Part shown: piece by piece, positions 36,845 through 64,000 of the stretch
Layout: every line of letters begins with the position of its first letter
Position numbering within the stretch: the stretch's first letter is position 1
Assembly (NCBI GenBank): GCA_003344405.1
Contig: NOWV01000142.1
Span: forward strand, 124,001-188,000
DNA from: Trichoplax sp. H2
Lineage: Eukaryota
Direction: 5' to 3'
DNA length: 64,000 nucleotides
Notes under the pieces: model-generated
The model's database searches: none
Told to the model about the DNA's origin: nothing
The model's input: only the letters and a program-made list of their open reading frames with translations
Position numbers and translations under genes: made by a program

Positions 36845-39800
36845 TTATAAACAAAATACTTGCAGTCCACCTTTTTCAACGGTACCCTGAATTGGGCCAT
36901 AATCCACTACTTCACCATCTACGGTTAAATATCCACCTTCAGTTTCTGGTACAAGACGAAATGCTTTGCATGGTATTAACTGAACATCAGGCGATTCAAT
37001 GTATTGTCCATTCTTGGTTGATAAGAGTATTTTAGTTAATCCTTTACGATTAACTTTATCACTGACTGCCACAATATATGCCTTGCCATCATCTAGTCTT
37101 GATGGCGGTGCAAATAGGAAATCCGTCGATAAATAAGGCAAATTACCGATGACAACTGTAATGAAATCCTGATCAATTACTTTCCATTGATTCGGTAGAG
37201 GTTTATCAAGTGATGGTATAGGATTTGAATCATCGCCAACTCTGCAAAATAATAAGGTATAATTTATTTCCTTATTTATTTATAAATCAAGCTTAATCTC
37301 CGTACTTTCTTAATCCATTGTACCTTCATAGATATTATTGGCTCTTAAAAGTTATATCAAGTAAAATAATATGATCGTTGCATCAACTTACGTCAGAATA
37401 GCAGATTGTTGATGGTTGGCATCCAATTGTGTAACATTCATATCATCATCGTTGTGAAACTAAAAATGCGAGGTGAGAATGTAGGGTGTTTACGCTTTTG
37501 CATCGATTGACATTGCTTCATGTTATGAATTAATTATTATTGTAAATGGCTGCGGATAATATTCAATAAATTACAGTATAATATATGGACTAACAAAGCC
37601 AAGATAACATGAGCCTAAACGATGCAGTATTTGTTTATTAAACATGCAATATGTTTATTATAGATGCTATCCAATTTAGCTTGCAAAGTGAATGGACTTT
37701 ATTTGTTTATTTTTATTATGTTATACGTTGCATGAATTACGGAGAGTTTATCTAGCTAATAAATAATTAGGAGTTTCAACACTGACTTTTCATTCCATAG
37801 GAATTAGTATTAGAACTGTTCATTTAGCCATATTACGTTCAAAAACTTGAATACTACTGCAACCTAAATCTTACAGATATAAAAAATCAATCTGACTTCC
37901 AATCAACTTACGTTAAATGTTTCATCCATAACAGCAGAACGTTCACTGACATTGCCATTATTCGTCCATTGAGATTCTCGAGTTTCTTCAGGCTCCTTGT
38001 CACAAGGTAAGTAAGATATTTTGCCTCGATAGACCTTTCGTTTAGCAATCATGGAAACTGCTTCTACAGTAAAGCGATTAGAACCAAGAAAATGAAACTT
38101 TTCTGACTTGATGTCAATATCAGCAATCATTCCCCATCCTATAGATAGAAAGGCTAGAAAATTGTTTTTTTTCGACTGTAAATGCATCAAATCCAACGGA
38201 CGAGTTGAATATTTTGCAATGATAAAGGTGGCACTGACGATATCATTTGGCTCTCTAGAATAAAATAATGAAGAAACTACTTAATCAACATATATGTACA
38301 CAGGCCAAGTTATGAAAATTAATTCGACTTAAAAATGCGATAGGATTCATCCTTGATAATGAAGCAAGGAATGAGATACAGGTGGAAATTCTTTGACTAC
38401 AAGTTAATATTTCTTAATTAATGACGATAGTCCTATTCTACTAGTATAAAATTAATAAGATAAATATTGATACGTTTATTTCAATCCATAATAAATGCAA
38501 ATGGACTCTAAATATATTCTAATAATTTTGATAGCCCTTCGAAGTAAAGAATAAAACCAACTAAAGCAGTACTTGGGCTATGCCATTTTTAGACACAGAA
38601 CGAAACTATGTGCATGCTTCAACCTAGCTAGTATAGAACTAATTTAGAGAATCAAGATTGCTTGATCTGTTTAGGATTATTAATAAATGAGAAACTTCAT
38701 AAATCTTTACATAGCATCCCTTAGCTCCAACTATCTCTTAGACACAATCTAATGATCAATCATTACCCTGAAAATTTCATAATGGACGCATAGAGTGCAT
38801 TCCCTGATCCTGCAGGTAAAATACCAATAGGCATATGTCTTACGGTATCCCAATCCTGCCGCTCATTTAGTCCATTTATAACCTAATCAGAGAGATTGAA
38901 CCAGTCATGAGTCTTATTTACAATGTTCACGCGATAAGCCATCATGTTCATCTTACATTTATATTTATTGGCAAGCCTATGCAATAAATTAATATCGCTA
39001 TTACTAGTTACAAACTTACTTCATAAATCAATCCGTCTCCGGATACAACTAATATACCATCCCATTTGGAAAGATTAGCATTAATGATATAGTCTTTTGC
39101 ATGCCCGACTCGTTCTATAAATGAAAGAAAATTAAGTTTAATCTGTCCGCAGTCAATCAATTACTACATGAAAGCTTCACTTAGTTATTAATATAAGTAG
39201 ATTTTGAAAATGACCTTTAAACTAAAGCTACTCAACATTAAAGCAATTACATCGTTGTACCTGTAGTTACAACTTCGCATAATATATCCGCTTCATTTAA
39301 AATATCTTTTGATTTGCCGTTGAAAATTTTACTAGCTTTACCAGATCCACTACAAGGGTTAATAAAAACCAACAATTTTCGTGGTGCTGGGCAAGATTTT
39401 GATCCTAGATCTGGATATTGTTAAGAAATAAAAAAATTTATGAGTCCATTTCATTTTTATTTTATCGGTATTGATGTTTTAAGATTTATATACGTATATC
39501 ATATCGATCGTCATATTTACTGTATTCTAATATTACAATCTATTAAGTGGATAAATCGATCGTATGATAATAAAGATTATTTTATTTTAACTATGTAAAT
39601 ATTATAGTCTCGATGATCATTTTAATTACTGAAAGATAATTTGTGAGATAGTTTCACGATCAGGATCAAAGTGGCAATTCGATTCTCAGGTTTTCATAAA
39701 ATGTTTTATTTTAATAAAGATCGGGACAGCGATGCTAAAATGATACAAGCTCAAAGATTATTTTAAGGATTAAATGTTAGCAACGTGGGTTAGGGTTAAT

Positions 39801-46087: not shown

Positions 46088-47464
46088 TTAGATATGCAAA
46101 AGTTGCAAGGTACTAGGTAAATCTGGAGTTTGATTTTGTTGAGTAGATTGTATTGTCTCATTGTTATTTTTTTTTCTTTCGTCTCTTCGTTTCTGTCGGT
46201 CTTTTTTAGCCAATTCTTTCCTCCGACGATTGGATATGTATTTATTAGGTTGCTGATGACTAGATGGTCTTCCTTTGATATTGCCTTTACTCCCTTTGGA
46301 AGATGATTGTTGTAGCTTTCCATTCGAATGATTATCCAGAGCGACTTTATTTTCATTCTCTGCAACAGTATGGTGAAGATGATGCCCTGCAGTTTTTTGT
46401 GTGCTTTGGCCATCTTGACTGGTTAATTCCTCAATTTGAACAATATAAGCAACAGTATTACTAATATTATATTCATGTTCTCGTAAGGCTTCCCTAACCA
46501 AGTTAATATCTGTACAATTGGATAAATGCATCACTTCTAATTCAATTTCATTTGGTTGATGGATGAAAGTATTACCCATAGAATTTGTAGCATCAGCATT
46601 CTTATTTAAGGCGCTAGCAGTCACTGTTGTCGTCATTTCATTTTTGTTTATGCACGTCTCAGAGTGAGTAGGACTGGCACCGATGGATGTCGTTGATGTT
46701 GTATCTTGAGCTGGTGTTGGATGAGAATGGGGGATAGAATCAGGATGACTGGCATCTTGGCTTCTAGGTTCAGTATTATTATGACATTTTCCTTCGGTTG
46801 CATCTTGTATCCCTTTCTGTTTCTTTTTCGTGGATTCATTGCAAGCAATTTTATCACTATCAGACTTGAGTTGATTTAACTTCACATCCGCTGCACCATG
46901 AGGATGGTTGTCCTTAATTTTTCGAACAGACGAGTAATGCTCGAAATCATGGTAAGAAATATGGAGTTCACGACTACCAGTCTTTGTAGGCCCATCTATT
47001 CCTTCAATTTGCCAGCATGGTTTATTAAGTTGATGAATGACAATGGTAAGGCGATGAATTCTAGCAAAAGCAACCAATGCATCATTGCCAGCAAAGGTCC
47101 CTTCTTGACCAAGCAATTGGATATGTTTATCAAAGGAGACATTATCGATCATAAATGGTTCAAAATCGTTGCGATTTTGGATCATATATTGCACCACTTG
47201 TTGACGATAGTTGATATGATTGGATTCATGGCCTTCTAATTGATCAGCCAAAGCTCGAAATAAGCAGTTTCCATCACCGGTGATTTGGCGTATTTTCAGT
47301 TGTATCCGACTCAGTTGTAACTTTAAGCTGTTTTCTTCACTCGACGACTGCGTTTGTTCTTTCTGACGGCGTATTTCACGCCTGGCAGCTCGTTCATCTC
47401 TTTTTCGTTGTTGTTGAGCTAGTCTTTGCGATTTTTGTCCATTACTATTCTGTTTTTTACCCAT
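46088..47464 (-). CDS. OTUD3: OTU-domain deubiquitinase OTUD3-like, single exon
   Basis: ATG at 47464 (MGKKQ). Basic N-terminus [26 protein letters not shown] (catalytic Cys), [29 protein letters not shown] (catalytic His), a UBA-like segment and a basic C-terminus. Confidence 0.92.
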
Positions 47465-48564
47465 GACGTTCCTGCCAATACCATGCAAGCTTGGCTATTG
47501 CAAATTTGCAATGCTATTAACAACCTTGCATCCAATTGGCTTTAGATCCTTCATTCATTGGCAACATCAGAATCCAATCCAATCTTGACCGCTATGACAG
47601 ATGACAGTTTGGTGCTCGATTATACCGTACAGTGTGCATAATAGACCTGATGATAGACCATGTCGTACCCTAAATAGCAACTCAAGACGAAGTCAAGATA
47701 TTAAAAGCTTGATAGGAGCAAAGCTTTGGCCATGGCTACTCGCTATGGCGTTGCATCTTGATAAGGTTGATTGGGCGAAATGATTAAGAAACGGCGTTCG
47801 TTTGTAATCGAAATGACTGGATTGTTATAGTAATCCATAGTGGCGAAGGGTCGAAATGGGTTATTTTATAGTCGTGTCTAGGAGACAACCGACGATGGTG
47901 TTTTTGGCCGTGGTGAATCCTACAGTACCTACTTTACGGTATCCTAGTACTGTACTACAGTACCATGATTGTTTGTACTGTAGAGGTGTCATTTGATGCC
48001 CCCCGATTGCATTTTTTTCCTTTCGTTTTAACTGACAGGTTGGTGTCCTGGTAAAAGAAAGAGAGACGAGAAATGGATGGTTATTCGTCCGAGTTGTACT
48101 ATAGTACTCCATGAACGGTACAGTACAAGTGTAGAGCAAGAATAGCCATAGGAAGAAAAAGATGATGTAATCCATCCAGGACGAAATACTTTTGTAAATA
48201 GAGAAATGGATATTGTACTCTCTTGCGCCATTGATTTTCACATTCACTGAGGCATGTACTGTATGAAGCTGCTGCCTGAACAGGTTCTGAGGTTGGTGGA
48301 ATGTTCTAGAAACACGGTCCACAGCCAGCGCAATCCTTTTCGTTTCAGAGAAATCAACACTAATGTTTTGCGACATTTTGAGAACGAAATCCATCAAAAT
48401 TGTTATGTGTGGAAAGAAGAAGCTCTCATAAGCATGCCTGTATCATTTATTTTTGTGAAGTAAATGATTTGAATTCGTTTTTTCACGATTTATAGTGTAC
48501 CGTTATTCTTGTAAAAATCGCCATTGTACAGTACTACTGCTTGTGTACAGAGTAGTACCGTGCT

Positions 48565-48960
48565 GCATGTCGTCGTTGGCAATGAATTACCAGCGTTGAC
48601 CGTCAACACGGGTGACACGGTCTAGCGGACGTACTGTACCACTGCTTGTCGTCGTTGGCAATGAATCAGAAAGACAATGAATTACCAGCGTTGACCGTCA
48701 ACACAGGTGACACGGTCTAGCGGACGTACAGTACAGTAGTACCGTACTGCATGTCGTCATTGGCAATGAATTACCTGGGTTGAACGTCAACACAGGTGAC
48801 ACCGTCTAGAGGACGTACTGTACCACTGATTGTGTACTGAGTAGTATCGTACTGCTTGTCGTCGTTGGCAATGAATCAGAAAGCCAATGAATGACCAGCG
48901 TTGACTGTCAACACGGGTGACACGGTCTAGCGGACGTACTGTACCACTGCTTGTATACTG
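48565..48960. repeat. Complex ~80-105-bp tandem repeat, 4 copies, between the divergent OTUD3 and Bak-like genes
   Basis: Unit GTCGTCGTTGGCAATGAAT..ACCAGCGTTGACCGTCAACACGGGTGACACGGTCTAGCGGACGTACTGTACCACTG starts at about 48569, 48648, 48753 and 48858. Confidence 0.9.
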
Positions 48961-49063
48961 AGTAGTACTGTTACTGGCTGGCTGGACCATGTAGAGTATT
49001 GGTATAAAACCAGCCTGCAGCCTAGATAAATCTTCATTTTGCATACTACTGCACAAACTAAGG

Positions 49064-52000
49064 ATGGCGCGAAATGAAGGTGACCATCGACTTCGCGATC
49101 GCTTCGGCAGCATTTTTACCAACTATCTAAGCGCAAGATTTCTCTTAAATGACAACCAAGAACGGGCAAGAGATGTAGCGCAGTTTCAAGGAGAGAATTA
49201 CATTGAAGTCAACGGAGACGAGACCGATTTAGGCCGTGGACCTGCTGATGTGGCACAATTACTCATTAACTTTGGAGATAATATAGAAGACCTTCGAAGT
49301 GTCACTCACGATTATATCGATCAAACATTGGTAATTAAGCTTAGAATAGACAAATTAATACAAGTGAAAAGTAATTGCCTTCGCTAATCGTTATCCCCTT
49401 GAAATGGATGAACAAGTGGAAAATGCTTGATCCATCCACTTTGTAGTATTGCTACACTAGACGACATGCTACAAGTGGTCATGACTTGTTTACTGTTCAA
49501 AATGTCATCCTGCCCATCAAGGGGAATGGACTGGGCAGAATAATCCATTCATGAATAGAAGTAAAAAGTAATTGCCTAAGCTAATTGCTATCCCTTTGAG
49601 AAGGATGGATAACTGGAAAATACTTGATCCATCTACCTTTTAGTATTGCTACCCTAGACGACATCAGACAAGATGTGATGAAATGTCCACTGCCGAAAAG
49701 GTCATCCTACCCATCAAGGCTTGAATATACTGTATATCCATCATTTCCTTCTTCAATTATACAATAGCATTGGGCAATCAGTAGTCATGAAATAGACAGC
49801 CGAGAGAGAGGTTGCTAAGAAATGTGTCAAGTGGAAAATGCTTGATCCATAAACCTATGCTACTACTGTACTGTACAGTACTGATTACACCATCATCCTG
49901 GTCATGAAGGTAAGTGTGCTATTAGATCTGAGAAAGGTTCGGTTCAACACTTGATTATCGATCATTTCCTTCTTTAATCATACAGCAGTGTCGTTAAAAG
50001 TCAACCCGACTCCAGGGCGGGATTCGCCTGAAGAATTTCTGTAGTGATGCAGTCTTTGGAAAGCGATTGCATTCATTTCGGGTTGCGTTTTCACTCCATT
50101 TAAGGACTCTATACGGTAGGGTGTGTTGGTCAAATATCCACTATAAAGAATTAGATTGAGGCATCCGAATTTCCTCCACTTCCCCCTCTTAAACCAGCCT
50201 TCGCCAGATTTTAGCTAAAGTAATTTCGAAAAAAATTTTATAGTCGATAATTTGAAGAGTAACGCTAAATTATTATTCGTTCGGCGTAAAGTTTCGTTTT
50301 CAGCAATACTGTACAGTCTAGACTACAGTATGGTTGGACAATCTTGCCAAAGTCGTTTCTTAAAAGTGAAATTATTACACGTTGGGCATGCACGCTCAGT
50401 GACAAGTCAATTGTTTATTTTACTCCAGCTGACACGAGTTGTTTAGTCAAGTTAGCCAGTCCTACTGTTCACGGTTGTGTCTACTTCCCCTGCAATCAAT
50501 ATCATAATCATGGCATGACGATTTAAACCTTAAATATCCTCTGTATTGACATGATGGTATCGAGATGATTTGGAGCCAACGTACATGTTACTATTTATCA
50601 AATTGCATTCCATAAAGTTCGTTCAGGCAATCGTGACTACTGTACAATTTGAAATCCCTGCCATTCAGATAGTAGTTCCCATTTGCAAGATAAAAAAAGA
50701 TGGCAACTTTGAAGAAATCATACTGTTTACTATCGCATTCAAGACATCCGTCAGTAAATGATCACTCGCGTCTTTAATTCAACAGGCAACGTAAAAACAA
50801 ATCATGCTCCATCAACATGTATGTCCAACGTTGATCATATTGATTATTTTTGGCCCTTCAATAGGATTATATGGAGCACTGATGGTACTCCGTTTGCATT
50901 GAAAGGTGCCGCAGAGACAGTTTGATTCCCCAGTAAGTTAATTAGTCCCGCCATTAATCAACTCTGAGGAAATCACCCTGTAATATCCAGTAGTGCGTTA
51001 ATTAAAGATGCCATTCCCATCATTTTTGTTCCTGCAGGCAACTTAAAAGAGCTGAGGCGTTTAGCGTTTTTACCTAGAAGGATTGTTGGACAGAAAACAT
51101 AATGATAAAGTGCTTTAAATACTAAATTAGCTGTAAATCGATTCTTTGATTGCAATAAATGGACGAGTAAATGAAAGTCTTTACCAGACTTTAAATGTAC
51201 AGTACTTCAAGCACTCAAGGGTTTAGCTACGAATCGATTCTTTATTGCAACAAACTAATCTACGAAGTGATATTGCAGAGAATGTTTCATTTAATTAAGA
51301 ATGTTGTTTACATTGCCGTTCTTTTCTAATTCGTAAGAATAGAGTGAAGGGCACGAAAATATACTACCAAGACTTAATAAAAAATTAGGCAGTTTAAGTT
51401 ACTTCTGAATGAGAAATTAGCCCAAAGGATATGATTTCGATAGAACTGAAGACAGCAATTGCATTATTATTGCACTCAACCCAAATTTATTCAGTCCGTG
51501 TTTACTTTACTAAAGCACATATTCATATGATAAATGACTAGTAGTATTAATTAAAACATACCTTTTGAATTATCGTCTGTTATCTTTAAAATTGTAGCTT
51601 TCAAATCTAATAAACTGATACTATGCTGTATTATTATTATTATAATATCAAAATTACGTTAATTAAATCAGCAAATATCTTCTATGTAACTATGTGCAAA
51701 ATGAGATTAACTGATCTACGACTTGGATTAATATTGCATTATCAAAGCTTAGAAAATTTTGCAGATGTTAGTATCATGTTGACATCATTTTTCTTTCTAT
51801 TTTTGAATATAGCATCTAAGTATTCAAGAAATTACCCAAAGATACCAATGGATTGTTGATCATGTGCTTCATTCTAACCGAAATAATTCGTTTGGACGCC
51901 TAGTTGTACTATTCTATTTCGGGTATCAACTAGTTTGTCGTCGATGGGATAATTTTGACTTCAAGCATCTTTTAAGAGAAGTTACAAAAACAATCATTCA

Positions 52001-52351
52001 CATTGCCATAAACTATGTAATGGATAAATTCTGGGATGGAACCTGGGTAATAACAGACTATCTGCACATTATCCCTGATATCAGTAGCTACAATACTGCC
52101 ATTACTCTTGCCATAGTGATAAATTCTTTGAATGATGACAATAATACCTAATTTGGGTAGAAGTGTTAACAATACTGTTAATATCACCTAACTTTGAATT
52201 TTTGGATTAATAACAGGATACCGTCTACGAGAACATAATGCAAATTCCGTTCGTCCAGAGCCAAATATCACCATTCCGAAGGAATTCTTTGATAGCAATA
52301 GCTCTTGTGTTCGGTTCAATTTTGGCGTTGAGTTTTATTCGACGTACCTAA
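49064..52351 (+). CDS. Divergent multidomain Bcl-2-family protein (Bak/Bax-like), 3 exons, 211 aa
   Basis: Exons 49064-49330, 51813-52046 and 52217-52351, all GT-AG and phase 0. Helix-1/BH4-like IFTNYLSARF, BH3 VAQLLINFGDNIE, BH1 NSFGRLVVLFYFGYQL, BH2-like DKFWDGTW|D and tail anchor SLIAIALVFGSILALSFIRRT*. Confidence 0.85.
49360..49860. repeat. Diverged ~200-bp intronic tandem duplication (2 copies plus a partial third)
   Basis: AAGTG/AAAAAGTAATTGCCT..GGAAAATGCTTGATCCAT..TAGTATTGCTAC..CTAGACGACAT..GTCATCCT.CCCATCAAGG at about 49362 and 49559; partial copy at about 49829. Confidence 0.75.
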
Positions 52352-55300: not shown

Positions 55301-55607
55301 TTTCAAAGATGTCGATTTACTACAATCTGTAAAAAACTACCTATTTGGATAATAATTTATAACCATTACTGGACCTTGAAATTATTAATCATTGATTTAA
55401 AATTAAATCGATTAACCTTATGCCCCAAAGGGCAAAAGGACAAATTAGTAAGTAATAATAATAATTTGATATTGTACGAAATTGAAGAAAACTTTTATCA
55501 AGTAAAGTTAACATTATATTGCCCTAGCTATTTTATCTTGTTAAATCTTTAAGTACAAAATAACGAGTTGATTAGCTATTATTTTCATGTTGCTTTAATG
55601 AGCTAAT

Positions 55608-56516
55608 ATGTCTGCTTTCATTTCTATAACAGTTCCTAATAACGCACTACTATGCCTGGTGATAGTGGTATCATTGATAATAGCTACACTATTCTTAAAT
55701 TGCATACTACATAAAAGATGGAAATTAATCGTCAAGTTATTTTCCAAATTTTGCCCTCGTGTAAAAGTTCGTAAGAAACGTTCTAGCAAGCTAGATGCTA
55801 CTAAGGATAAGTCACCAAATAGTGATGATTATGATACTAGTGATCATCCGTCCGATAATGAAGATGATAAGGCTAATGAAAATAGCAAGTTAATCACTGG
55901 ACCTGGCGATAATCGATCAATCGATCAAAGTAATCTTAGTTCTTCTCACACACCACCACCTAGTAGGGTAGAAACTGCAAGTTTAAGCACATATATTCCA
56001 GGTGCTTCTCGTACCGGATCTTATGCCTTAAATAGTTATACACATAAATTATCCAGTGAAGAAAATTTAGTTCATGTTGAGTTTAAAATTTCATTTGAGG
56101 AAACCCTTACTCAACTTGTAGTGAAGATAGAAGATGCTGTAATTGACGATGAGAAGCTTTTAAAAGGCTATGTTAGTGTTCATGGTGCACTGGTTGGAAC
56201 TAAAACGAGGCGCTTTCAAACTAGAGCTAAACGTTCAAGTTCTAGTATTATCTTCGATCAAATATTTGTTTTAACTAATGTTGAAATTTCAGACATTGAA
56301 ACGTCTAAATTGCGCCTTCGTTTATATCATCTAGCTAGTAAGGCAGCATTAATGCAAGCCAAAAAAATAGTTGCTGAAAATATTGTTGGCTTGCATCAAT
56401 TAAAAGCTACAAATAATAATAACAATAATAACAACACTGATAATGAAGCTGATGAAACTCAGATTGAAGATCAGCCAAAGCCATTGGAAAAAGATGAAGC
56501 TGAAGTTGCAGAGTAA
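55608..56516 (+). CDS. Single-exon membrane-anchored C2-domain protein, synaptotagmin-14/16-like
   Basis: N-terminal TM (ALLCLVIVVSLIIATLFLNCIL), basic juxtamembrane stretch, acidic/Ser linker and one C2 domain (VEFKISFEE..LVVKIEDA..RRFQTRAKR..IFDQIFVL..LRLRLYH). Confidence 0.7.
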   Translation: MSAFISITVPNNALLCLVIVVSLIIATLFLNCILHKRWKLIVKLFSKFCPRVKVRKKRSSKLDATKDKSPNSDDYDTSDHPSDNEDDKANENSKLITGPGDNRSIDQSNLSSSHTPPPSRVETASLSTYIPGASRTGSYALNSYTHKLSSEENLVHVEFKISFEETLTQLVVKIEDAVIDDEKLLKGYVSVHGALVGTKTRRFQTRAKRSSSSIIFDQIFVLTNVEISDIETSKLRLRLYHLASKAALMQAKKIVAENIVGLHQLKATNNNNNNNNTDNEADETQIEDQPKPLEKDEAEVAE

Positions 56517-57065: not shown

Positions 57066-60000
57066 TTATGCATTTGATAATAAATCCTTTAGGTCTTGTA
57101 AAAATATGCTTGCTTTTTCGGGTGTCATTGTATTAGCTAAGGATAGAAAATCGGCTTGATAGGCTTCTGAATTGGATAAATCATTACCAATACGGACTAA
57201 TTCGCTTCCAATGGATCTTACGTCAATTTTTATCTCTTGATTTTGGTCCTTTCTTTCATTATTTATCATAGTTTTATCAACACTATCATATACTTCCGCT
57301 ACGTCCAAACTTTTCGCTCTTGACTCTCTCAATTCCTTAGCTCGTAGTATTATCGGTGATGGGATACCAGCCATATCCGCTATTTCAATCCCGAGCGAAT
57401 TTTGACAGTGACCTGGTACTACTTTATGCAAAAGAGTTAACGAATTCTGATCAATGACACCCTTACTAGCTGTAAGCATTTGATATGACGATGAGCATGA
57501 CAGGTTGTCATTGACCATTCGACTCAACTGATGATAATGAGTGGCTGTTAAACACCGACATTTAACAATGTCATGTAGATATTCGATAACAGCCCAGGCG
57601 ATAGCCATACCATCATACATAGCAGTACCTCGACCTAGCCGAAGAATATATTCAAATAAAATAGCAGATTAGATCATTTTCTTTTTTCCTCCTTGTATAT
57701 TAACTCAAACATTTACTTAAAACAAATTCTTACCAATTTCGTCCAGAATAACGAGAGACCTTTCGGTAGCATGAGAAGTAAAATAAGCAGTTTCAAGCAT
57801 TTCTGTCATGAACGTTGATCTGCCTTCTATTATACTATCAGAGCTTCCTATGCGCGTAAATAGTCGATCTACAATACTGAGATGAGCTTTATCGGCCGGA
57901 ACGTAAGATCCAATTTGAGCCAAAATTGATATAATAGCATTTTGACGTAAGTAAGTACTTTTACCAGCCATGTTAGGCCCAGTAAGTAACCAAATGCGAT
58001 CAGAAGGGCGCAAATTGCAGTCATTTGGTATATAAGAACTCGAATCATAGGTGGTCGATTCAATGACAGGGTGCCTTCCGGCTACAACTTGAAATAACTG
58101 ATTTTCTTCATCGTCGAAAGTTGGTCTAATGAATTTACCATCTTTAGCAGCTATTGCTAAGCTGCAAGCTACATCTAATCTCGCTACAACCTGAGCAATT
58201 CTTTTCAACCAATCTATAGACAATGTTATTTTATTAAATAAATGGAGTAAAAATTCATTCTTACGTTGGTTAAGTTTAGCAGTGTTTCTTCGTAATTCAA
58301 TGTTAATCAACTGCAATTTTTCATCAGTAAATAATATTCGAGAGGCTTTTGTCTTCACCATCATTACATTACTATCATTAAAAGTAGACTGCAGATTTTT
58401 ACTCTCAGCTTTTGGTAAACTGTATGCATAACCAAGATCCTTGTATATTTCTAATTTACCACTTGGCATCAAATTTATGAAATTATCTTTAAGTCTTACA
58501 ACTTGTTGATGTAGTGCGTTAATTTCTGAACGAATTTGATCGCATTTATCATCCACACCAATTGCAGGAAAATTGGTTTCATCATCGTCAGTAGTGACTA
58601 TTCCTTGTAAATACTTTATTAAACTCTGGCGGTCGATACTTCTTGGTGGCAGTTGATTGATGAGTTCACGTAAACTGTGATCATTCGTTAAATTTTCATC
58701 TAATACCTGATGTAACATTTGGGTATTAGGTAGGACTTGACTCAATTTAATAACATGCCCTACATTTGCCATATTAGTAGAAAATGCTTGCACCAGTCGC
58801 TCCATATCTCCACACGTTTTTAAAATATCGCAAATAGATTTTGTAATTGTTAGATGATGGTAAAAGTAAGTCACTTCATCAAGCCTTTTATTAATTTTTG
58901 TAATATCTGTTAAAGGTGAGGACAAGTCTGCTTTGAGATATCTTCTACCAGCAGAAGTAACGGTATTGTCAATGATATGAAGTAATGTACGCGCTCTACC
59001 GCTTGAAGCATCGTTATGGAGTGGCTGTAACAGTTCAAGTGATTTTCGACTAGCCGGATCGATAGACATGTGATCATCGATTGAGTAGTGCTTAGGGGTA
59101 AGGGTTTTAATGATGTGTCTGCCTCTCGTATCAGTTAAATATTTCAGTAGCATCTTGATTGTGCTCTCTTCTATGCTAGAAATTTGTGTATTCTTCAATC
59201 CATTGTCACGCATCGTTGCCCATATATCGTCTTCTAAGGCATTATCTTTCAATGGTGTTAGCCTAAATCCAGGGAGCAACGACAACTGATCATATTTACC
59301 GGCAAAGGAGGGGATAGCTTGCATTGAATCGTTTTGGTTGAAATACTTGTTTAAAAGATTTTGCATGTCTTGATAACAAATTATCTAATGGAATCAATTA
59401 AGCACTGTTAAAACCTACTTTATGTATTTACTACTTGCATCCTCATTACCAATATGCTATCGATTGCTCTACCAATATGATTTCTATGTATCAAACTTGC
59501 AAAATGCAGAAGTGTCATTGTGATGTTACAGACAGCGTAATCCACCTAGCACAAGTGATGACCAGGGTCTATTCCAGTATTACGCACTTAATTAATTTTT
59601 ATTTTTTAAACCTCTTACCTCAACTGGATTAATTCTGGCCAATTCCTCTCCAAGATTTCCTACATTGACGGTTGTCAGTTGAAAATCACCTGTTGATATA
59701 TCCACCCAGCTGATACCTAATTGATGACCCGGTCCTTGACAAACTGCCATCAAGTAGGATGCATTTTCCTGCATAGGATTTATGAAGGTGCCAGGTGTGA
59801 CCACTTGTGTTACCTGTCGATGAACTAATTTAGAGTTGCGGCCAGTGTCAATTTTAGAATCAGTTTGATTGCATACAGCAACACGGAAGCCATGACCAGT
59901 CAACTTCGCTAACCATGCATCAAGTGCGTAGATAGGAAATCCAGCTAGATCAACATAAGTATTGTTACCCATTTTTTTATGGTGGCTTAAGAATAATTCA

Positions 60001-60263
60001 GTCTTTCCAGCTGCAGCATGTGCATCTTGATTATATAACTCGTAAAATCCACCAACTTGAAATAGTAGCAAGCAATCGCTATACTGTGCTTTAATATGCA
60101 AATACTGTTGAAACATATACTCAGCAGTAAGCGCTAATGGCGAAGTTACAAGGCATCGTTTGAGCGGATTTTCATGCCATTTCAACTTGCTATGCCGCCG
60201 CGTATTGAATGGAATGATTCGCTTGATTCCTTGGAAATAGTTCAATGATGTCCTCATCCACAT
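57066..60263 (-). CDS. MSH1: MutS1/MSH1-type mismatch-repair ATPase with putative mitochondrial presequence, 3 exons, about 954 aa
   Basis: Exons 59619-60263, 57734-59384 and 57066-57634 join in frame. Domain I MFQQYLHIKAQYSDCLLLFQVGGFYELY (FxE), VTQVVTPGT, GISWVDISTGDF, SRKSLEL, GRHPVIE, TGPNMAGKSTYLRQ, STFMTEM, ILDEIGRGT, ATHYH. Confidence 0.88.
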
Positions 60264-60799
60264 CCTTGTCAAAGTCACGCGGTTTTAATGATTGGAGTTG
60301 GATGTTGCATGCAGGTTACATTAAGGCTTTTGCAGAGCTAGTTCAATCAATACATTGAATTTTAGTGTTGATTATTGCATGAATTCCAGGACAACACTAC
60401 GGATTTGGAACTGCAGGGAGCAGCTGCTGGATGATTGTGCAGCATTTGAGCTTTTCGATATACAGTACTCTGCATAATGTCCAAGGGAGAGATTACGTGC
60501 AGAATAATTGTCACCCTTTTCTTTCCATATCTCTCCTTGGTATTGGGTACTATGACAGTCAGTTTCATTCTAACGTCGCTACTGTCGTGTATAGTACTGT
60601 ACTTCAAAGAACCCTATTTAAGCGACATGATTCTGGTAAGTTGCAAAGGATCTCCTATCCTGGTTGTGAGAATATCGACTCAGTATCATTGAAATCATTT
60701 TTAAACAAGAAAACAAGGACATAGCAGCTGAAGCTTAGCTGAAATCATGTTTTCATCGATCACTGTCGATATTTTAGCACAAAATTAGCGCTAATATTA

Positions 60800-62047: not shown

Positions 62048-63804
62048 TGCTCAATTCTCCATCATTGTCAGGAAAATTATCCCTTGGAATACAAGCCATT
62101 CTACAGCAACATCCATCTATTCAACTTAGGATCATATTTGGGTGTCGGACTTTGAAGCTATTTTTCTCTTTGCTGTTGTAGCCAAGACTGCAACGTATTC
62201 AAAAAGTTGACACAAGTTCAGACTTGTACTGCATTCGTAGAAGCAAAAAAAATACTTTTCATCAACCTCAACGGAAAGGTATGTACAGGAGATTGCTTGG
62301 ATGGATGTAGGTCCGATTGAAATATCGGACAATCGATTTTAATTTTTCAACGGAAAAGTCAGAAATTCATTGTACTGTAGTAGCAGTTGCACCATAGCGT
62401 AGTAATCGATAGTGATCATGTTTATTTTGTTGCAGCCTAAAAATAGCGATCAGTTTATCTTGACAGAGAAAAAAGGTTTTGTTAGCTGATTCAAAGTGAG
62501 AAAATACTTTATTTTTAGTGATATGAAAGGGTCCAATTCAAACCGTTACCTCTATTCTTTTTAGCAAGCAAGGATTTACCAATACTGCAGCTAGCGTTAG
62601 CATCAGTATTTCCTTCAAAATTTGCATCATAATTGATGTCTAGTACTGTACAGCGTGAGCCTTTCGGATCGACATGTTTTCACTCTTTCCTGTTACACAT
62701 TTACACGTACATAGTAAATACGCGTATCGATCACTGTACACTAGAAACGCATGGAAATTTCAAAGTGTCGTCTTGTATCGTTCTGCTAACATAATTAACC
62801 TGATTGATGAAAACACAGTCATGATACTGTAAGTAGCTAGATGAAACCCTTTCTAATAAGAGAGCACTATCATACGATACCGATCGATTTTCATCTTAGC
62901 TCATCAACACTGTATCAAGCTGTAATGAGCTGCGTATCACCTTATTAGTGTTGGAATGCATTCTATCTTTGTAAATAGATATAGAAGTAGTTTGGTTAAT
63001 ATAGTACTCATGTTGTCATCAATTAATAAGCCTTTAACCATATTCAATTCAATCATGTTAAACCACAAATTGTGACTACGTAGCCACTGTTTGCCAGCCT
63101 ATTTATAGTCTATATATTAAGTGGCATAAAGCGGCGATGATGTAGTGTCTTTCTTTAACACCATTACGTCATCCATACAAAAACTTTTCTCAGGAGGTAA
63201 GTAAACTTTGTAACTTTATATAGCCATCTCCATCGATCCTATCGTTCTAAAATTCGACACTGCCAGTCAGAATACCTAAACCCAACACTTTAAGAAAGGA
63301 CTAAGTGGGACGAAATTGATTCATTGATCAACACTAATGCCATATTAACTCTGCTCTAGTAAAATGGGTAATTTCTACTTCTGATCATTTTGCCGCATTA
63401 TTTAAATCCCCTATTTTGTTTCCTTAATTGTAAAAAAAATGAAGGCTACACCAGGTTATCAATGTTTAGTAATTGTTCATCAACAGTACTACAAGTTACG
63501 CCATTACGTACAAAAATTGTACGCCCTAAGTAATTGAATGTCAGAAACTAGAAAAAAAATGTCACCAATACAACAATTGATCACTCGGTATGATTCATCG
63601 TAGGCTAAAAAAAAAATAAATGACTGTAGATTTTACTTGGCGCCGGCAATATACGCCGATTCACTAATGTACGCGTACATACAACCTTCAAGTACAGTAC
63701 TCGACATTTTTTTTTCAAATAAATTTAAATGTATGGCCGATTTCACTTATGTACTGATTACTCGTTCAATATCCTCAATTTTTTCTTCTTCATGCTTAAT
63801 AGCT

Positions 63805-64000
63805 ATGGCTCATGTAAAATCTGTTACATCAACACCTACTACAACAACTACCACCACTACTCAGTCATGTCCAAGACGAGAAGAAAATCTTCAGGAAATC
63901 GCCGCAGAATCCAAAAAATTATTTCTCGATTTCATTGCTGATAGATCAGCTAAAGATGGTCAGGATCAAGGATGCATATCGCAATTAACAAGGGAACATA
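63805..64000 (+). CDS. 5' end of a probable Bax-like Bcl-2-family gene, truncated by the window edge
   Basis: Open frame from ATG 63805 to the edge: MAHVKSVTSTPTTTTTTTTQSCPRREENLQEIAAESKKLFLDFIADRSAKDGQDQG. It resembles Bax helix 1 (human EQIMKTGALLLQGFIQDRAGRMG). A pyrimidine tract and AG acceptor lie just upstream. Confidence 0.6.
   Translation, partial: MAHVKSVTSTPTTTTTTTTQSCPRREENLQEIAAESKKLFLDFIADRSAKDGQDQGCISQLTREH

Follow-up and report, generated by a model that had tools for sequence, protein, structure and literature searches.

TrispH2_008944 of Trichoplax sp. H2 probably encodes a fifth, strongly divergent multi-motif Bcl-2 family protein

Trichoplax is a minimal, early-branching model of Bcl-2-controlled apoptosis. 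In the literature consulted, T. adhaerens is said to have four Bcl-2 proteins and neither Bok nor a protein with only the third Bcl-2 homology (BH) motif, that is, a BH3-only protein (PMC7527217, PMC8998228, PMC7022251). The genes for these four, trBcl-2L1, trBcl-2L2, trBcl-2L3 (trBax) and trBcl-2L4 (trBak), each have a single BH2-splitting intron, of 1991, 1725, 463 and 280 nucleotides (nt), and their products have masses of 24766, 24282, 27382 and 27944 Da and isoelectric points (pI) of 8.65, 8.85, 6.96 and 6.45, respectively, according to PMC7527217. The same source describes this intron as a phase-0 one that follows the TGG codon of the final BH2 Trp and is shared by the four Trichoplax genes and nearly every animal bcl-2 homolog; it also reports that trBak acts as a BH3-only-like sensitiser whose activity is mainly via its BH3. 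Here we describe the locus TrispH2_008944, found in a 64,000-nt stretch of Trichoplax sp. H2 DNA (assembly GCA_003344405.1, contig NOWV01000142.1, positions 124,001 to 188,000), which we call the window. With a probability of about 0.8, we regard it as a real, transcribed three-exon gene whose 211-amino-acid (aa), tail-anchored product is a fifth multi-motif Bcl-2 protein, strongly divergent, restricted to placozoans and distinct from these four.

The exons of TrispH2_008944, spliced by their coordinates, give 636 nt, or 211 codons plus TAA, and a predicted protein of 24852 Da with a pI of 5.96. Both introns are in phase 0 and have canonical GT..AG ends. An in-frame stop is present upstream of the ATG at 49064. 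One RNA contig (run X12, see below) begins at 49035, a position that contigs cannot establish as the start of transcription. The features of the gene are as follows.

49003-49009 (+): candidate TATA box, TATAAAA, 61 nt 5' of the ATG; a motif match with a presumed role
49064-49330 (+): exon 1, coding part; residues 1-89, with helix 1, an acidic loop, BH3 (nt 49250-49285) and helix 3
49331-51812 (+): intron 1; 2482 nt, phase 0, TTG/GTAATT...ATATAG/CAT
49908-49983 (+): mini-intron within intron 1; 76 nt, GT..AG joint, spliced in one RNA run
51813-52046 (+): exon 2; residues 90-167, with helix 4, BH1 (nt 51882-51899), the central hydrophobic helix 5 GRLVVLFYFGYQLV, helix 6 and BH2 (nt 52014-52046)
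52047-52216 (+): intron 2; 170 nt, phase 0, TGG/GTAATA...TAACAG/GAT, directly after the Trp167 codon
52217-52351 (+): exon 3; residues 168-211 and TAA, with helix 8, a linker and the predicted tail anchor LIAIALVFGSILALSFI (nt 52289-52339), flanked by RR and RRT

Every residue of the spliced product agrees with the deposited "hypothetical protein TrispH2_008944" (RDD39251.1, 211 aa, Trichoplax sp. H2), which was the sole longer protein returned by a search with exon 2. Transcription was judged from contigs of three RNA-seq runs of one study (X11, X12 and X13), which are 90-100% alike to the window; the organism label of these runs differs from that of the DNA-like runs. Both exon joints are present in all three. 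For 49330/51813, an RNA contig covering exons 3 and 2 also includes the last 29 nt of exon 1; for 52046/52217, the sides measure 145, 234 and 32 nt. Run X1, which is DNA-like, is colinear across the gene and has neither joint. Identity with the deposited protein, together with both junctions in the contigs of every RNA run, takes the gene model beyond chance, and the locus is a genuine, expressed three-exon gene. An earlier note, made from the letters of the window, had proposed exactly these three phase-0 exons, with the second intron right after the BH2 Trp, and had suggested a search for junction reads; its coordinates, translations, motifs and introns were all correct, and the junctions are there. 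A direct repeat with units of 47 nt that are 91% alike lies just 5' of the TATA candidate, at 48800-48846 and 48921-48967.

Not all of the RNA is spliced. Intron 1 is covered by contigs in each of the three RNA runs, starting 30 nt inside exon 1 (49301) and reaching 49909 in X11, 50197 in X12 (where additional contigs extend to 51781) and 50950 in X13. Genomic DNA in the libraries does not explain this signal, because the depth over intron 2 is zero in all three. Spliced and intron-1-containing RNA coexist, in proportions that contig depths are unable to rank, and the cover is most simply read as nascent, still unspliced RNA in libraries made by random priming. One candidate for a separate RNA source, a match to the C/D-box small nucleolar RNA snR69 at 51095-51190 (+), fell below threshold (26.1 bits vs 50, E=0.25) and is probably due to chance. 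Intron 1 also carries a 169-nt direct repeat, 80% alike, at 49354-49522 and 49551-49719, and a dispersed repeat is suggested by run X1, whose depth is 2-4 times higher over about 49868-50351.

The protein has the motifs of a multi-motif Bcl-2 family member in various states of preservation. A BH3 motif consists of four hydrophobic positions with L-x3-G-D. Here the canonical pattern is given by the core LINFGD (residues 67-72), by V63, L67, F70 and I74 as the hydrophobic positions, and by G71 and D72. BH1 reads NNSFGR (residues 113-118): Gly117 and Arg118 are kept and the Trp of NWGR is replaced by Phe, while the Asn becomes Ser in the alignment with BAX and is kept, at the price of a 2-residue gap, in that with Bcl-w. 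BH2, YVMDKFWDGTW, has its first Trp missing or displaced, GTW in place of GGW, and Asp as the residue 7 before W167. A phase-0 intron stands right after the TGG of Trp167, as in the published genes. At the C terminus, residues 192-208 (LIAIALVFGSILALSFI) form the best 17-residue Kyte-Doolittle window, with a mean of 2.73, preceded by RR and followed by RRT; this segment is a predicted transmembrane (TM) tail anchor.

Profile searches place the protein in the Bcl-2 family. PF00452 (Bcl-2) was the only Pfam family at E≤10, the check that the earlier note had proposed, with 24.2 bits and E=5e-5 for residues 70-161 on profile positions 4-89 of 100; exon 2 alone matched positions 29-89 of 100 with E=3.1e-4, and the full-length protein had no BH4 Pfam match at E≤10. 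TIGR00865 (bcl-2, NCBIfam) aligned colinearly over residues 52-210, on profile positions 56-212 of 213 (25 bits, E=1.6e-5). When PDB sequences were searched with phmmer, all 24 hits at E≤10 were Bcl-2 family chains, led by Bcl-w (4cim, E=0.0041) and then Bcl-xL (E about 0.1), BOK and BAX. With exon 2 alone, BAX filled 11 of 12 rows, at E about 0.7, with NNSFGRLVVLFYFGYQLV aligned to NFNWGRVVALFYFASKLV of BAX helix 5. The language-model features of the ESM Atlas gave 0.95 and 0.94 to PF00452 clusters, and the 10 best family-bearing hits all share PF00452; exon 1 alone reached 0.84, which is a lead only. Among the matches listed by Foldseek for the better of two weak structure models, about 34 of 38 entries belong to the Bcl-2 family, led by BOK, BAK, Bcl-w and Bcl-xL. 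A wide VIA-align search also contained Bcl-2 folds, not above background. On sequence and gene structure, then, Bcl-2 family membership is well supported; we infer the fold, and keep it at that strength because the structure models are weak. With BH1, a remnant of BH2 and the core helices, the full-length product falls outside the BH3-only class.

Relatives were sought among 5.8 billion proteins by a word-indexed search and, exhaustively, among 1.84 billion representatives by a HMMER scan. The HMMER scan of the representative proteins found none outside placozoans, and the word-indexed search with residues 57-175 returned, at E≤10, only RDD39251.1 and TRIADDRAFT_51432. The latter (124 aa) and the 94-aa product of a 549-bp ENA contig are the only other relatives found; metagenome scans with the full protein or with a three-sequence alignment gave no further placozoan orthologs. 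TRIADDRAFT_51432 (XP_002107681.1, B3RJ71), an uncharacterized protein of T. adhaerens, is the same over residues 1-90 bar E33Q and is the ortholog. It comes without BH1, BH2 and TM segment because the model splices from exon 1 into intron 1: its later exons equal positions 49768-49810 and 51038-51102 (+) of the window, where the equivalents are open frames flanked by AG and GT. The RNA contigs hold no junction for these small exons, which is no evidence of absence, since contigs drop rare forms. The 94-aa product, from a distant placozoan, has 53% identity over exon 1, with helix 1, D62, V63, L66, L67, I68, G71, D72, I74 and L77 invariant; V63, L67, G71, D72 and I74 of BH3 are invariant in both relatives. 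An LC3-interacting region (LIR)-like string, Y46-I-E-V, was dropped, as this relative has Y-S-E-S at the same place.

The deposited 211-aa model from strain H2 is labeled a hypothetical protein and has no recorded Pfam domain and no family name. The suggestion in the earlier note that gene predictors could miss the gene holds for T. adhaerens, where the model is mis-spliced, and fails for H2, whose annotation has the exact protein. Its view of the gene as a real, highly divergent family member with non-canonical BH1 and BH2 is borne out by profile scores below the curated cut-offs and by the lack of a non-placozoan relative in the HMMER scan.

The protein is not one of the four already described, as far as these can be judged from their published features. 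The cloning primers of the four open reading frames (ORFs), given in the preprint 10.1101/816322, imply the N termini MSPEREKM, MTSSFDEA, MADFTYVL and MSSTITIAES, compared with MARNEGDH in TrispH2_008944, and C termini unlike its ...SFIRRT. None of the 16 primers matches within 49064-52351 at up to 4 mismatches. The trBcl-2L2 chain 6yld_C has 8% identity to TrispH2_008944 by VIA-align and is absent from the phmmer hits. Because the published genes have other intron numbers and lengths, other masses and pI values, and other ORF ends and primers, TrispH2_008944 is a separate gene, distinct from trBcl-2L1, trBcl-2L2, trBax and trBak, and a fifth member. A full-text search with six accession or locus names of the gene or its ortholog found no paper, topic searches yielded only papers that count four members, and an unindexed mention, for example in paper supplements, is possible.

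One of the four is a neighbor. The three features downstream of TrispH2_008944 are as follows.

55602-56516 (+): intervening ORF, an unassigned open frame between TrispH2_008944 and trBax
57066-60284 (-): MutS-family gene, also between the two, with at least three coding blocks and domains I, II, III and V (E down to 4.9e-42)
63733-64000 (+): start of the first exon of trBcl-2L3 (trBax), from primer matches and translation, cut by the end of the window

The trBcl-2L3-F primer from the preprint matches at 63733 (+) with 1 mismatch, and an internal trBcl-2L3 primer at 63851 with 0. Translation from 63733 begins MADFTYVL and contains the Ser/Thr-rich tract TSTPTTTTTTTTQS, as PMC7527217 describes for trBcl-2L3/trBax. 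The trBax start lies 11.4 kb downstream of TrispH2_008944, on the same strand. For four known family genes in a Trichoplax genome which we take to be about 95 Mb, we estimate the chance of such proximity at roughly 1 in 1000. Because that proximity is improbable by chance, it hints that TrispH2_008944 arose by local duplication near trBax. A tblastn search of the window with the full protein brought up no additional exon of a paralog; the strongest hit elsewhere had E=1.3. Upstream, a long open frame at 46088-47494 (-) encodes an OTU cysteine-protease domain (E=1.6e-12), just before TrispH2_008944. A YegS_C domain, the C-terminal domain of lipid or diacylglycerol kinase type (E=8e-10), lies in the open frame 36845-37279 (-), probably one exon of a larger kinase gene extending towards 41867.

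Several results weigh against the Bcl-2 assignment or lend it no help, and are set out here together. Both profile scores miss the curated cut-offs, PF00452 with 24.2 vs 31.4 bits and TIGR00865 with 25 vs 283.35 bits; this is a conservative criterion that does not overturn the E-values. BH2, at residues 157-167, does not fit W-x5-G-G-W, with G165 and W167 only. AlphaFold2 gave a predicted local distance difference test score (pLDDT) of 50.4 and a predicted template modeling score (pTM) of 0.42 from the single sequence, and a pLDDT of 42.6 with a three-row alignment. The best Foldseek E-value is only 0.05, with a high root mean square deviation, so that the fold comparison with BAK and BAX proposed in the earlier note came out mostly Bcl-2 among the matches listed and weak in its statistics. 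A structure search with the Atlas's own model found no Bcl-2 cluster (TM score 0.32 or less), a PDB search with the last 77 residues found no Bcl-2 chain, and BLASTP of the full protein against the 89 N-terminal trBax residues in the window gave no alignment. A profile of the three placozoan sequences matched designed ankyrin repeats in the PDB; we judge this to be spurious repeat summation, as neither of the two top rows has an individual stretch that passes, and it arises because the profile is dominated by exon 1, whose BH3 string resembles the ankyrin repeat consensus. A LAS1 match of the last 77 residues (PDB, E=0.4) was taken as chance.

Four points would suit a transcribed but decaying Bcl-2 duplicate, under relaxed constraint and no longer a working regulator: BH1 and BH2 are degenerate; of six exon differences listed for close strains, four are amino-acid changes (D12N, S23R, L28S and R112Q); exon divergence is not lower than that of intron 1 in the same contigs; and a large part of the RNA signal runs unspliced through intron 1. 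Yet the 211-codon frame is intact over three exons with canonical splice sites, and the RNA contigs have no listed indels in the exons vs 7 in intron 1. Exon 1 has also been kept at 53% identity in the distant placozoan, where helix 1 and the BH3 core are unchanged, and the key residues G71, D72, G117, R118 and W167 are in place. We consider such decay unlikely, and of the alternatives it is the one that fares best.

Somewhat less likely again is a locus with two products: the full-length protein, divergent, Bax-derived and tail-anchored, and a truncated protein of the 107-aa type, made either by keeping intron 1 or by using the small exons of the T. adhaerens model. Reading through from exon 1 into intron 1 adds 18 codons and gives a 107-aa product with helix 1, BH3 and helix 3, ending in VIKLRIDKLIQVKSNCLR. 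As the core and anchor are gone, such a product would be a BH3-only-like sensitiser. Against this, the sequence of the read-through tail is not conserved in the 94-aa placozoan relative.

That the protein is instead an unrelated helical, tail-anchored one with no Bcl-2 fold, its profile matches and motif strings having arisen by chance, is very improbable: two family profiles match at E about 1e-5 in colinear, near full-length alignments, the 24 PDB hits come from one family, the family-specific intron stands exactly after the BH2 Trp codon, BH3, BH1, BH2 and the TM segment follow in canonical order and spacing, and a known Bcl-2 gene lies 11.4 kb away. Hardly credible at all is that TrispH2_008944 is one of the four characterised homologs and nothing new. 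Its mass of 24852 Da is near the 24766 Da of trBcl-2L1, but that protein has a pI of 8.65 vs 5.96, all four genes have one intron vs two and BH2 introns of 1991, 1725, 463 and 280 nt vs 170, their ORFs start and end differently, the trBax primers match 11.4 kb downstream instead, the numbering of trBak BH3 (I109...Y120) and of trBcl-2L2 R97 (PMC7527217) misfits V63...I74 and R118, and identity to 6yld_C is only 8%.

We return to the fifth member and what it might do. The BH1 Gly and Arg pair with a BH3 Asp. With a canonical BH3 that includes G71 and D72, and with Gly117 and Arg118 in BH1, both sides of the BH3-in-groove contact would be kept, while the groove-lining remainder of BH1 and BH2 appears drifted or degenerate. 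The C-terminal anchor may insert into the mitochondrial outer membrane or the endoplasmic reticulum, and the protein may join the other Trichoplax Bcl-2 proteins in their BH3-in-groove network. We put a death-promoting role, as BH3 donor, sensitiser or atypical Bax-like effector, at about even odds, by analogy with trBak; it is favored because the BH3 and BH1 residues are kept, the groove has drifted, helix 5 is of the Bax type, the pI is acidic and trBax is linked. A pro-survival role is doubtful, and a non-apoptotic one slightly more so. The label "Bak/Bax-like" given by the earlier note is only suggestive: BAX as the best match of exon 2, the nearby trBax and an acidic pI like those of trBax and trBak support it, and the best full-length matches, the pro-survival proteins Bcl-w and Bcl-xL, do not.

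A fifth, expressed and divergent member near trBax would need adding to the four-protein network, where it could donate a further BH3, act as a decoy or work as an atypical effector. Its existence shows that tBLASTn with human queries and the 2008 gene models count too few family members. The gene also offers a natural example of how far BH1 and BH2 may drift in a protein that retains BH3, the BH1 Gly-Arg, its tail anchor and the intron in BH2. A BH3-only-like sensitiser, if true, would stand in an animal for which the literature has no BH3-only gene so far.

The gene model is already deposited; what is new is its assignment as an unnamed fifth Bcl-2 member, and no new kind of system is involved. 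Its closest counterparts are known. With trBax (trBcl-2L3) it shares the neighborhood and strand, the multi-motif layout, the C-terminal TM segment, the BH2-splitting intron after TGG and an acidic to neutral pI, and its own helix 5 has the Bax-type LFYF string seen in the BAX alignment. The two differ in that trBax has a single 463-nt intron, a mass of 27.4 kDa and a Ser/Thr-rich, mucin-like insert, whereas TrispH2_008944 has an extra 2482-nt intron between helices 3 and 4, a mass of 24.9 kDa, no Ser/Thr tract and non-canonical BH1 and BH2. trBak (trBcl-2L4), likewise a multi-motif protein of Bcl-2 fold, provides the functional model that we would favor, by analogy, for TrispH2_008944; it is distinguished by its BH3 at I109-Y120 rather than V63-I74, its 27.9 kDa, its single 280-nt intron and its other ORF ends. 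Among vertebrate proteins, Bcl-w and Bcl-xL are colinear with TrispH2_008944 from BH3 through BH1 to helix 6 and share the Gly-Asp of BH3 and the Gly-Arg of BH1, and BAX is the best match of exon 2, over helix 5. From all three it is set apart by an identity of about 15-20%, by SFGR in place of NWGR and by YVMDKFWDGTW in place of W-x5-GGW.

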